Positions 60,636-63,528 of a stretch of 64,000 nucleotides of DNA are shown in pieces. The stretch covers positions 62-64,061 of the IMG/VR virus record IMGVR_UViG_2884683641_000001. The stretch is one strand, 5' to 3'. The DNA is from a virus. Below the pieces are notes generated by a model, which saw only the letters and a list, made by a program, of their open reading frames with translations, made no database searches and was not told the DNA's origin. Position 1 is the stretch's first letter. Every line of letters begins with the position of its first letter. The position numbers and the translations under genes are program-made.

Positions 60636-60656
60636 ACCCGCTCCGGCGGGTTTTTT
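60636..60656 (+). terminator. Intrinsic terminator
   Basis: ACCCGC-TCCG-GCGGGT-TTTTT. Confidence 0.8.
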
Positions 60657-60678
60657 ATCGTCCAAAGAAAGGGCTGGC

Positions 60679-60864
60679 ATGCCGGAAGAAGAACGCAAAC
60701 TCACCGACGCCGACATTGATGCGATTGTCGATCGGTTCGAAAACAAGGTCGCCGAGCGGTTCTACGGCGATCTCGGCCGCGGCGTATGGGGTGTGGTGTG
60801 GAAGGCCATCGTCGCAATCCTCGTGGGCTTCGCCGCCTACGGTTCAATGAAAGGTATGAAATGA
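60679..60864 (+). CDS. Single-TM lysis-associated protein (holin/antiholin candidate)
   Basis: Acidic N-terminus, TM VWGVVWKAIVAILVGFAAYG. Confidence 0.65.
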   Translation: MPEEERKLTDADIDAIVDRFENKVAERFYGDLGRGVWGVVWKAIVAILVGFAAYGSMKGMK

Positions 60865-61814
60865 AAATCTGGACCTATATCACCCGCCACCGCGCGGTAT
60901 TCCTCTTCGGCCTGACCCTGTTGGCGGCCGCGGCGTCGCTCGCATCGGACCCCGACAGCGGTTGGGCAACTGCGCTCGGCGGCCTAGCGATGCTGCAGGG
61001 GATTTGGGCGGTCGCCGCCTCGCACTGGGTGCGCAAGAAGCTGCTGGACTATCCGGCCGCCGACATGAGCAAGCTATTCGAAACGGCGAGCAAAGAGCCG
61101 ACGGGCGCCGGCCTGGCGCTGATCGCGATCTCAATCCTGCTGGTCGGCCTGCTGATGGTGTTCTCGCCGCGCGCGCATGCCGCTGAACTGCCGGCCGGCG
61201 CCGTGCGTTACCTGCCAGTGCTGAAGGCGGAGCAGCAGCGCCTGTGGCCTGATCACCCGCATCCGGTGCTGCTGGCCAGCCTGGTCGAGCAGGAGTCGTG
61301 CATCACGCTGCACTCGCGCGGCTGCTGGAACCCAGGTGCGCAACTGAAGACCGCGCGCGAGGAGGGTGCCGGCGTCGGCCAGATCACCCGCGCCTACCGC
61401 GCCGACGGCAGCCTGCGCTTCGACGCGCTGGCCGACCTGCGCGAGCAGTACGGCGCCGAGCTGGGTGCGCTGTCCTGGTCGAGTGTGTACCAGCGGGCCG
61501 ACCTGCAGCTGCGCGCCCTGGTGCTGATGTCGCGCGACTCCGCGCGGCAGTTCCGCCAGGCGCCGGCGATGCTGGAGTTCGGTGATGCCGGCTACAACGG
61601 CGGCCCGGCCGGCGTACAGCGCGAGCGCCGCGCCTGCGCCATGGCGAAGGGCTGTGATCCTGGCCAGTGGTTCGGTCACGTCGAACTGCACTGCCTGAAA
61701 TCGCGCCAGCCGCTGTACGGCGGCCGATCAGCCTGCGACATCAACCGCGAGCACGTGCGCAACGTGATCCTGGTGCGTGCGCCGAAATATGAACCGGCAT
61801 GGGCGGCACCATGA
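60861..61814 (+). CDS. 3-TM domain fused to a lytic-transglycosylase-like endolysin
   Basis: Three hydrophobic segments, then LVEQES (catalytic Glu), GVGQIT, GYNGGP; no stop codon between the domains. Confidence 0.82.
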   Translation: MKIWTYITRHRAVFLFGLTLLAAAASLASDPDSGWATALGGLAMLQGIWAVAASHWVRKKLLDYPAADMSKLFETASKEPTGAGLALIAISILLVGLLMVFSPRAHAAELPAGAVRYLPVLKAEQQRLWPDHPHPVLLASLVEQESCITLHSRGCWNPGAQLKTAREEGAGVGQITRAYRADGSLRFDALADLREQYGAELGALSWSSVYQRADLQLRALVLMSRDSARQFRQAPAMLEFGDAGYNGGPAGVQRERRACAMAKGCDPGQWFGHVELHCLKSRQPLYGGRSACDINREHVRNVILVRAPKYEPAWAAP

Positions 61815-62035
61815 GCTTCGCCAAGGATCTCTTCACTTGTGCGGACGGTGAGTCGTACGACATCGGCCGCGTGTCCTGGGCAGTGTCGACGGCCGTCATC
61901 ATCGCCGCCGCGGCGTGGAATGCCTGGCGCGGCGCACCGATTAACCTGACCGAGCTGGCCGGCGCGCTGGGCGGCGTGGTGGTGGCGCACGGCGCGGCGC
62001 TGTGGGCGAAAGCTGTGACGGAGCCAAAACCATGA
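61811..62035 (+). CDS. 2-TM holin-like protein
   Basis: Two hydrophobic segments; ATGA-coupled. Confidence 0.6.
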   Translation: MSFAKDLFTCADGESYDIGRVSWAVSTAVIIAAAAWNAWRGAPINLTELAGALGGVVVAHGAALWAKAVTEPKP

Positions 62036-62439
62036 ATGCGATCGAAGAAGTTGTGGCCGGCGCCGGCGGCGCGCTGGCCGGCCAGTTGTGGAAGGTAGCG
62101 ACCCTGGTGCTGGCCTTCCTGCTGCTGGTGGTGGGCGCGGGCGCCGGCACCGGCTGGTGGCTGGCCAGCACCGCACGCGACAAGGCCCTGACCGACCTCA
62201 AGGCGGAGCAGGGCGTCAACGCCGAGCTGCGCGCCGGCATCACGACTCAGAACACTGCGATCCTGGCGCAGGCCAAGCTGGCGCGCGAGGCGGAGGCGCG
62301 CGGTGACGCTGCCCGGCAGGCCGCCGCCGTGAGCGGCCGCCGTTTCGACCAGGCACTGCAGCAGCTGGCCGGCGCGCAGGCGACCGGCTGCGCCGACGCA
62401 ATGCCTTACGTGAACCAGTTGCTGGAGAAGGTGCGATGA
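62032..62439 (+). CDS. i-spanin (Rz-like)
   Basis: N-terminal TM, coiled coil, terminal Cys. Confidence 0.75.
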   Translation: MNAIEEVVAGAGGALAGQLWKVATLVLAFLLLVVGAGAGTGWWLASTARDKALTDLKAEQGVNAELRAGITTQNTAILAQAKLAREAEARGDAARQAAAVSGRRFDQALQQLAGAQATGCADAMPYVNQLLEKVR

Positions 62440-62714
62440 AGCGGAAAATCGTCAACTTGACCAAAACGGCAGGTTTGGCCGCCACGGTGCTGCTTGTCAG
62501 CTGCGCCAGCACACCGGCGCCGTCCACGCAGATTGTCCAGGTACCAGTCCCGGTGTCCTGCGTGAAGGACGCGCCGGCCCGACCCGAGTACGAGTTCGAC
62601 CGGCTGCCGGCCACGGCCAGCGACGGCGACAAGATCCTGGCATTGGTGCGCGACTGGGCGCGGTACCGGAAGTACACCGGCGAGCTGGAGGCGGTTATCG
62701 TTGGCTGCCACTAA
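62436..62714 (+). CDS. o-spanin (Rz1-like lipoprotein)
   Basis: Lipobox LVSC; Pro-rich VQVPVPVSC; terminal Cys. Confidence 0.8.
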   Translation: MKRKIVNLTKTAGLAATVLLVSCASTPAPSTQIVQVPVPVSCVKDAPARPEYEFDRLPATASDGDKILALVRDWARYRKYTGELEAVIVGCH

Positions 62715-62738: not shown

Positions 62739-63467
62739 TTACGCAGCCTCGGCAACTCTAGTCAGCTTTTCTTTCGCAGCCCACCAGCCGCATGAGTTTG
62801 TCATTCGAGGCATGCAATGATATGGGTCATCGCATCCATATGATTTCTTGCATCGCTTAGCCTTCAGCGCCCCGTCAATCAAATGCGATACTAGCTTTTG
62901 GTAAAGAAGTTCCACCGACATGGTGGCGTCCACGCGCTGAAGGGTTGGATCGGTAATCGCAATCGCGCGGAAAATCTCGCCAGCTTTCGCCAGGTCTTCT
63001 TGACGCTCGAAAAGATTTGCCTTTCCATCGCGGGCCGTTACACGATACACAGCAAGATCCGCAGGAAGATCCAGCCAAAAAGCGACATCTGGAGCAACCA
63101 CATCAGCACGAATTCGTTGCTCAATGCTTCTGTGGTCGTCAACAAGGATGCCCTGGTAGGCGATCGTGGAATAAAAATAACGATCTAAAATAACAACGTT
63201 ACCAGCCTCGAGAGCGGGAATGATTTTCCGCTTTAGGTGATCTTGCCGATCAAGAATAAAGGCATCCAACTCTTCCTCAAAAGGTAGTCTGCCGTTAAAT
63301 GCCGAATCGCGCAGCTTCTGGCCCCACTGGCCATCGGTAGGCTCTTTGGAAACAACTACCGTCTCACCGGTGCTCTCGAGCGCTGCCTTGAGCAGATGCA
63401 CTTGCGTGGTCTTGCCGGCCCCGTCAATGCCATCTACTGCAATTAAAATGCCAGGATAAGTATTCAT
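62739..63467 (-). CDS. tmk: Thymidylate kinase-like moron with a Cys-rich tail
   Basis: DGIDGAGKTTQ P-loop, SKEP, FILDR, ILDRYFYSTIAYQG, PDVAFWLD. Confidence 0.9.
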   Translation of the reverse strand: MNTYPGILIAVDGIDGAGKTTQVHLLKAALESTGETVVVSKEPTDGQWGQKLRDSAFNGRLPFEEELDAFILDRQDHLKRKIIPALEAGNVVILDRYFYSTIAYQGILVDDHRSIEQRIRADVVAPDVAFWLDLPADLAVYRVTARDGKANLFERQEDLAKAGEIFRAIAITDPTLQRVDATMSVELLYQKLVSHLIDGALKAKRCKKSYGCDDPYHCMPRMTNSCGWWAAKEKLTRVAEAA

Positions 63468-63528
63468 TTCTTGAGTATAGCAAAAACACCTCACTATTTA
63501 AATGAATAAAATATTGCTTGCATGCATC

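Follow-up and report, generated by a model that had tools for sequence, protein, structure and literature searches.

Does a phage gene that joins three transmembrane (TM) segments to a cell-wall-degrading enzyme make one membrane-bound lysin, or does it make two lysis proteins from a single open reading frame (ORF)? The question is raised by gene B, the second of five lysis genes (A to E) on the + strand of a 64,000-nucleotide stretch of viral DNA (IMG/VR record IMGVR_UViG_2884683641_000001, positions 62 to 64,061; the whole stretch is called the window here, and positions are counted from its first letter). Phage lysis is usually described in terms of separate holin, endolysin and spanin genes, and exported endolysins carry either a cleaved N-terminal signal or a signal-arrest-release (SAR) anchor. 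Our comparisons indicate that gene B is a real, conserved and unannotated variant of the Sec-exported endolysin, in which a holin-like module with a probable internal signal is fused to the enzyme, and that this one gene probably gives two lysis proteins. An earlier note on this DNA had read from one uninterrupted ORF three TM segments, an A-x-A site (SPRAHA-AELP) and an SLT-like domain, and all of these elements lie where it had placed them:

60861–61814, + strand: gene B, the fusion protein; an uninterrupted ORF of 317 amino acids (aa) whose ATG overlaps the stop codon of gene A (ATGA)
60861–61181, + strand: gene B residues 1–107, a three-TM module resembling gp61 of phage YuA (PHROG 8226-like), predicted N-in, C-out
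60894–60947, 60963–61025 and 61104–61166, + strand: TM1, TM2 and TM3 of gene B, hydrophobic helices
61173–61181, + strand: A105-H106-A107, predicted signal peptidase I site; predicted cut before A108, with P103 at -5
61182–61811, + strand: gene B residues 108–317, a family-1 lytic-transglycosylase-like domain of 210 residues, predicted periplasmic
61293–61298, + strand: catalytic E145-S146; E145 is invariant in 69 sequences

The hydrophobic helices of gene B span residues ~12–29, 35–55 and 82–102; the second is weak (mean Kyte–Doolittle (KD) hydropathy 1.03) and the third strong (mean KD 2.48), and the A-H-A that follows it leads into A108-E109-L110-P111. An AlphaFold2 model built with 69 homologues (predicted local distance difference test, pLDDT, 94; predicted template modelling score, pTM, 0.79) placed helices at residues 10–28, 35–61 and 80–100, a coil at 101–111 and, beyond it, a mostly helical domain with short strands. 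Compared with the PDB by Foldseek, this C-terminal domain resembled MltF, MltC, Slt70, MltE, LtgA and g-type lysozymes (probability 1.0, best E 4e-4). Neighbours of gene B in the ESM Atlas, which were mostly viral, consisted of viral proteins of 304–310 aa followed by PF01464 SLT proteins, and gene B matched PHROG 669 ('endolysin') at E 5e-11. Pfam SLT (PF01464) gave no match to the whole of gene B at E 0.1 or to residues 108–317 at E 1, so the term 'SLT-like' rests on the fold and the E-S motif; at that level, judged from the model, the C-terminal domain is SLT-like. Pfam returned nothing useful for any of the five cassette proteins, neither domain of gene B has a Pfam family, and a PDB sequence search with gene B found weak MltF matches only (E 0.18). 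The protein's six cysteines (147, 155, 259, 265, 278 and 292) all lie in the catalytic domain.

A homologue search over 5.8 billion proteins yielded 1473 relatives. Among the best 120 of these, all but one were 308–334 aa long, with at least 92% query coverage and 67–88% identity, and their sources included Duganella, Pseudoduganella, Gallionellaceae and many metagenomes; E145 and S146 were kept in 119 of the 120. Since these homologues are of similar length and match over nearly their full length, the ORF of gene B is real and not a chance frame in GC-rich DNA. For a wider view, representatives of clusters at 50% identity were scanned exhaustively with HMMER (484 matches), and the best 150 were aligned together with gene B (n = 151) and classified by the number of hydrophobic segments 5' of the catalytic domain. 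The fused form accounted for about 59 of the 151 representatives (three segments in 51, four in 5 and two in 3), with an N-terminal region of 102–245 residues, mostly 103–150. A single signal-peptide-like segment was present in 78, most of them ~230–290 aa long, and 14 had none or were truncated. Fused representatives reach down to 36% identity, which implies that the fusion is old and diverged; unfused enzymes reach 54–56% identity to gene B, no less than many fused ones. Judged by these alignments the fusion is conserved and is not a one-off: it is kept in many relatives and split in others, and the isolated loss of a stop codon, which the earlier note had named as what would refute its reading, is not what the relatives show.

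How often did the architecture change? On a FastTree phylogeny of 147 catalytic domains with hydrophobicity-based labels we counted 23 architecture changes, a rough and direction-blind figure, against 38–47 in the shuffles inspected. On this rough count, fused and unfused states appear to have changed many times among similar catalytic domains. Such repeated switching argues for a common mature enzyme, and a shared maturation route would explain it. In the host family gene B was found in 7 of 201 genomes, a sporadic presence that fits a prophage gene. Two queries of 50,697 phage records found no fused form, and tblastn of the N-terminal module against the same records gave no match at E 1.

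Where does the three-TM module come from? YuA-like Pseudomonas phages, Bordetella phages CN1, FP1 and MW2 and Stenotrophomonas phage Sonora match gene B only from residue 99–110 onward, the endolysins of YuA, Sonora and the Bordetella phages being ~45–50% identical to its catalytic domain from residue 110. The YuA and Sonora enzymes measure 241–243 aa and have an N-terminal hydrophobic signal of their own, and a gene for a 111-aa three-TM 'holin' lies directly upstream. PHROG 8226, a 'holin' family, is matched by YuA gp61, the Sonora holin and ECML-606-1 gp12. When 50 fused N-terminal modules were aligned with 33 gp61-family proteins by hhalign, the match had a probability of 97.5% (E 8e-12, 79 columns), and a second independent run gave 97.6% (E 4.6e-12, 83 columns). 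In a control with two-sequence templates the real alignment scored 39.8, against 8.8 for the reversed template and no more than 12.3 for any of 60 column shuffles; when blocks were permuted, part of the score was retained only if the loop 2 and TM3 blocks were adjacent. Module and gp61 are both of ~110 residues with three TMs, predicted N-in/C-out, and a small-x-small end just after TM3. In both, TM1 and TM2 are joined by a short periplasmic loop with Asp-Pro, TM2 is followed by a basic residue, and a loop of equal length with D-L-x-x-(L/W) and A-x-x-x-G runs into the Gly/Ala start of TM3. Pairwise BLASTP of gene B residues 1–110 found no significant similarity to the holin of Sonora (E 0.26) or of YuA (E 4.5), so the relationship is seen by profiles only; by those profiles the module appears homologous to the gp61 family. 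A PHROG scan with the N-terminal modules of three fused proteins gave no match, and an ESM Atlas feature search with the module gave no usable one.

A gp61-like gene lies immediately upstream of a signal-peptide enzyme in YuA, Sonora, ECML-606-1 (E. coli), KLB24 (Klebsiella) and loci L012 and L015, the last two being prophages of the same bacterial family as the host of the window. Because this pair recurs in several places, gene B can be read as its fused version, and the three-TM domain, as far as these comparisons go, is no new invention but the copy of a known neighbour that has been fused on. Locus L020 (G081, from an unpublished genome) was left out of the comparisons. Standalone gp61-family 'holins' are 107–119 aa long and almost all end in W-A-K plus Ala, Gly, Thr or Val, mostly L-W-A-K-A; L107, W108 and K110 are invariant in the family alignment. 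The C-terminus of the gp61 family, on the periplasmic side, looks like a signal peptidase product, a puzzling end for proteins from which nothing would be cut. In the literature we found no functional study of gp61.

The junction can be compared residue by residue with the YuA-like pair (gp61, PHROG 8226, and gp62, PHROG 669), which has the same gene order, a homologous module of the same size and topology, and a related enzyme. There, two genes are present and the enzyme has its own signal peptide, ending V-A-L-A before Q-D in gp62, whereas gene B is one ORF with TM3 and A-H-A instead. The hhalign match leaves the last five residues of either partner unaligned (P-R-A-H-A in the module, L-W-A-K-A at the stop of gp61), and in a pairwise alignment with YuA gp62 TM3 falls on the gp62 signal peptide without a gap. 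What is missing in the fusion is the enzyme's own signal peptide, in whose place stand TM3 and A-x-A. In several fused relatives A-K-A is followed by Q-D-V-R-T-(F/Y)-(V/I)-P, that is, the C-terminus of gp61 joined to the predicted mature start of gp62 (Q-D-A-R-T-F-V-P).

Residue usage around this site is strongly biased. In 69 fused sequences position -1 is Ala in 67, and position -3 is Ala in 54, Val in 7, Leu in 2, Ser in 2 and Gly in 1; position -2 is variable (His, Arg, Lys), -5 is often Pro, Ser or Gly, and +1 is Ala, Gly, Gln, Glu or Asp. Such usage at -3 and -1 is typical of signal peptidase I sites. Of the 120 close homologues, 119 keep both A105 and A107. TM1, which has the same in-to-out orientation, is followed by bulky or aromatic residues and has no signal peptidase pattern. 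In unfused relatives the same small-x-small motif recurs, equally far from the conserved (I/V)-P-x-x-A with which the domain opens. Gene B has both an h-region (TM3) and a c-region (P-R-A-H-A), but not at its N-terminus: they start at residue 82, behind a two-TM hairpin. The N-terminus has 3 Lys or Arg residues, loop 2 has 5 and loop 1 has none. From the positive-inside rule, the restriction of the six cysteines to the catalytic domain and the N-terminal export signals of the homologues, we predict an N-in topology with the enzyme in the periplasm.

The reading we favour, with moderate confidence, is that TM3 is an internal cleavable signal, at which LepB would release a soluble periplasmic enzyme and leave behind a gp61-like membrane protein. 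Gene B would insert co-translationally with its N-terminus inside the cell, TM3 would act as an internal start-transfer signal carrying the catalytic domain into the periplasm, and LepB (signal peptidase I) would cut after A107. Two products would arise 1:1, a gp61-like membrane protein of 107 residues with A-H-A at its end and a soluble transglycosylase of 210 residues with disulfide bonds. The trigger would be as for other Sec-exported endolysins, with gene A, possibly together with the module and gene C, depolarising or permeabilising the inner membrane, and the D/E spanin pair would act last by disrupting the outer membrane. What we observe is the architecture with its homologies, a conserved site and topology signals; that the protein is cleaved, that the module acts as a holin and that the exported enzyme is restrained are inferences.

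Several points weigh against this reading. Plain hmmscan of residues 1–107 against PHROGs found no PHROG 8226 match at E 0.01, and a word-based search for standalone homologues of the same residues returned one 98-aa fragment only. The gp61 family is called a holin by annotation only. The strongest point is that A-K-A is kept at the C-terminus of gp61, where nothing is removed, and the conservation of small-x-small residues after TM3 could reflect another role of the segment. Early export of a freely soluble, active transglycosylase would risk premature lysis. Finally, gene A is another good holin candidate, so the role of the module could be regulatory.

The most serious alternative, though an unlikely one, is a permanent tether: TM3 would be an uncleaved signal-anchor, and the enzyme would stay on the three-TM module and act at the membrane surface or after a holin has collapsed the membrane potential. 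With 13 of its 21 residues being L, I, V, F, M or W, the strongly hydrophobic TM3 would make a good, stable anchor, but the -1/-3 residues that follow it fit signal peptidase I and the site falls exactly at the cleavage position of the unfused relatives. A linker of only ~10 residues between TM3 and the first helix of the enzyme would allow little reach into the peptidoglycan. The interchange of fused and unfused forms among close catalytic domains is likewise hard to square with an enzyme that is soluble in one form and permanently anchored in the other. In favour of the tether is that standalone gp61, for which cleavage is not needed, retains A-K-A as well. Of the two outcomes that the earlier note had offered, a LepB cut or an endolysin tethered until holin triggering, the comparative evidence (the conserved A-x-A, its register with the unfused sites and the gp61 end) favours the cut, and the tether remains as the minor one. 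Precedents for anchoring exist: membrane-anchored endolysins with N- or C-terminal TM domains have been reported (PMC8541568, PMC8943055), and a Clostridium holin–endolysin fusion has been discussed as possibly uncleaved (PMC9527704).

Production of two isoforms, as from dual-start lysis genes, is very unlikely. A second start at Met69 (61065) would give a 249-aa ordinary signal-peptide endolysin, with a Lys n-region, TM3 as h-region, A-H-A as c-region and a size near the 241–243 aa of the unfused enzymes. Nevertheless, no Shine–Dalgarno-like sequence lies 5' of 61065, and Met69 is not conserved: the column is Met in 52, Gln in 52 and Trp in 11 of the 120 close homologues, and Met in 5 of 49 distant fused representatives. 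An internal translation start, which the earlier note had raised against its own proposal, was thus not borne out. A role outside lysis, in which a membrane-anchored transglycosylase would serve, for example, local wall remodelling for the lysogen, is equally improbable. The gene stands in the late operon of a prophage, 3' of the tail genes and ATGA-coupled to holin-like and spanin genes, and its homologues occupy the same slot, followed by spanins, in other prophages and phages; against this, it can be said that some homologues are named just 'lytic murein transglycosylase' at NCBI and that the nearest solved folds, MltF and MltC, are housekeeping enzymes, but a presence in 7 of 201 family genomes is as expected for a prophage gene and the ESM Atlas structural neighbours are mostly viral.

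Least credible is a SAR-type endolysin, in which TM3 would slip out of the membrane by itself once this is depolarised, as P1 Lyz and phage 21 R do: the unfused homologue of Sonora is annotated 'SAR endolysin transglycosylase', and Sec dependence, membrane association before lysis and small holin-like genes alongside are likenesses to P1 Lyz, phage 21 R and phiKMV gp45, but SAR domains are N-terminal and uncleaved (PMC6116005), and they are single and only weakly hydrophobic, whereas TM3 is the third TM, strongly hydrophobic and not Gly/Ala-rich, and followed by a conserved A-x-A, which speaks for its removal. Ahead of TM3 lie two TMs and a 26-residue charged cytoplasmic loop that its release would drag across the membrane. 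The earlier claim that gene B differs from both canonical and SAR endolysins consequently holds in part: the topology contradicts a SAR enzyme, but the mature enzyme would equal that of the signal-peptide-type relatives and the three-TM domain corresponds to a known gene.

Cleavage at TM3 by LepB has a further-reaching form, which we put forward tentatively and regard as falling somewhat short of probable. Gene B would be a phage 'polyprotein', one ORF split by the host signal peptidase into a functional holin and a soluble endolysin, made 1:1 at the same membrane site; the cut would create the native periplasmic C-terminus of the holin, YuA-type holins would be fission products or precursors, and fusion and fission would have occurred repeatedly. 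Polyproteins cut by the host's signal peptidase at a TM segment that serves as an internal signal, so that one ORF gives two functional proteins, are known from Bradyrhizobium FbcH (cytochrome b/c1) and from the structural polyproteins of flaviviruses. These proteins are unrelated to gene B, and the analogy is mechanistic only.

Among lysis proteins, two kinds of exported endolysin are known (PMC6116005): signal-peptide enzymes that are cleaved, of which Lys44 of Oenococcus phage fOg44 is the prototype, and SAR enzymes. Gene B would resemble Lys44 in holin-independent Sec export, in removal of the signal by signal peptidase and in an activity presumably unleashed by depolarisation; the signal of Lys44 is N-terminal, whereas that of gene B is internal, behind a two-TM hairpin, and its cleavage would leave a defined three-TM protein. 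Endolysins with one or two N-terminal TM domains occur in Xanthomonas phages Xop411, OP1 and Xp10 (PMC8541568). Compared by description only, those of Xp10 and Xop411, for which self-transport has been proposed, belong to the lysozyme family, and these sources give neither homology to a separate holin nor a signal-peptidase site. A natural TpeE-type holin–endolysin fusion, 'so far not recognized', was described in 2022 from six Clostridium sporogenes genomes (PMC9527704). It resembles gene B in that a holin-type module is translationally fused upstream of an endolysin and cleavage is considered possible, but its setting is Gram-positive, its module has a single TM and an amphipathic helix, and C-terminal flipping is the mechanism proposed (PMC9527704), whereas gene B has a Gram-negative host, three TMs, a Sec-type topology, a signal-peptidase motif and many diverged clusters. 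Our literature search found no paper describing this three-TM/transglycosylase fusion.

Gene B thus stands for a group of prophage endolysins, large, diverged and for the most part without annotation, that carry a fused holin-type neighbour, the last helix of which is proposed to take the role of the signal peptide. If the cut is real, this would be an example from a bacterial virus of a polyprotein processed by the host signalase. It would also be a natural system in which to ask why the stoichiometry or co-localisation of holin and endolysin must be fixed, how a Sec-exported transglycosylase stays harmless until triggering, and what the PHROG 8226 'holin' does. Annotation is affected in either form: fused genes are now called 'hypothetical' or 'lytic murein transglycosylase', and unfused relatives are variously called SAR endolysins, yet their N-termini resemble cleavable signal peptides.

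Three other loci bear on how fused and split forms are told apart:

L026:1375–2382: gp61-like TM protein and signal-peptide lysis protein of Klebsiella phage vB_KM5a1-KLB24, in the same frame with one stop and one codon between them
L017:268–2349: vB_BspM_AgentSmith, with a 111-aa copy (signal peptide plus first third of the enzyme), a 308-aa full copy and a NUMOD-domain gene between them
L013:1134–2124 (G103): a 119-aa gp61-like ORF that ends 4 nucleotides before a signal-less catalytic-domain ORF in a different frame

KLB24 might pass for a form that a single stop codon keeps from being fused, but it was rejected as such, since its enzyme retains its own signal peptide. Bacillus phage AgentSmith was likewise rejected as a fused form: a truncated duplicate and the full signal-peptide enzyme flank a homing-endonuclease-like gene. 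It is odd that the best phage match of a Gram-negative-type exported enzyme should be in a phage listed with a Bacillus host. In L013 the second frame has upstream codons R-R-A before its Met; the explanation may be a frameshift in a fused gene, an error in the sequence, or a genuine canonical pair of holin and cytoplasmic endolysin.

Gene B is embedded in a compact cassette, whose A/B, B/C, C/D and D/E pairs each overlap by a 4-bp ATGA. Its other members, and two loci that hold homologues of them, are:

60679–60864, + strand: gene A, 61 aa; acidic N-terminal cytoplasmic part and one C-terminal TM (35–53); candidate canonical holin
61811–62035, + strand: gene C, 74 aa; two weakly hydrophobic Ala/Gly-rich segments (best 17-residue KD ~1.6); candidate holin- or antiholin-like accessory gene
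62032–62439, + strand: gene D, i-spanin; TM at 22–40 and a periplasmic helical, coiled-coil-like region; PHROG 3774 (unnamed, 7e-5) and PHROG 1403 (Rz-like, 6e-4)
62436–62714, + strand: gene E, o-spanin lipoprotein; lipobox L-V-S-C (Cys24) with Ala at +2; 4-bp overlap with gene D
L024:1501–2977 (G288): gene A homologue (64%), signal-less Peptidase_M15_3 endolysin (E 3e-18) and spanins related to gene E
L019:799–2185 (G228): gene C homologue (36–37%) heading a lipobox lipoprotein and a class-3 lipase (Lipase_3, E 2e-9)

The separate one-TM and two-TM genes that the earlier note had placed on either side of gene B are present as genes A and C, the segments of the latter being weakly hydrophobic, and its two spanins with a 4-bp overlap proved exact. 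Gene A homologues were found at two further loci. In L010 the homologue (69% identity) is ATGA-coupled to a fused endolysin and gene C is absent. In L024 it precedes a signal-less Peptidase_M15_3 endolysin, which is how a canonical holin that serves a cytoplasmic enzyme would behave, and the small one-TM gene therefore moves between cassettes with unrelated endolysins. Small proteins built like gene A, with an N-terminal helix and one C-terminal TM, lie 3' of the pair in ECML-606-1, L012 and L008, and some fused genes (L005, L008) have no adjoining small TM gene at all. Fused genes without a small TM neighbour would fit a module that itself supplies the holin-type function, which is no proof of it.

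Gene C is not conserved alongside the fusion (it is absent from L010, L011, L005 and L008) and is rare: matches were found in 3 of 400 other genomes of the family, at the ends of other phage late operons, with homologues in L019 and L021. It had no Pfam, PHROG or phage tblastn match. The L019 cassette has a class-3 lipase in place of a peptidoglycan hydrolase. Genes D and E have the features of a two-component (Rz/Rz1) spanin, namely an N-terminal TM with a periplasmic helix in one, and a lipobox with its sorting residue in the other. Gene E has a weak Pfam LysC/Rz1-like match and matches the Rz-like PHROG 456 and 812; the Rz-like PHROG matches of the spanin pair are at 6e-4 and 6.5e-4. Gene E homologues lie downstream of the L010 and L024 cassettes.

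The window, which is contig 6 of a 6.56-Mb genome, carries a siphovirus-like prophage, for which Pfam finds a terminase, a DUF4055 protein (presumably the portal), a Mu F-like protein, a P22-type coat protein, a tail tube and an 1826-aa tape measure. The lysis cassette stands at the right end of the late operon, 3' of tail-fibre-like genes, and is bounded by two further features:

60636–60657, + strand: terminator-like hairpin (6-bp stem, 5 G-C) with a T-run, 27 nucleotides 5' of gene A
62739–63494, - strand: thymidylate kinase gene (Pfam E 3e-37); its G+C is lower, and the C-terminal tail of its product is Cys-rich

The hairpin precedes gene A, and the stretch that separates the two showed no sigma-70-like promoter, so that expression of the lysis genes may depend on read-through or antitermination. 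The thymidylate kinase gene converges on the end of the lysis cassette and marks the edge of the late operon.

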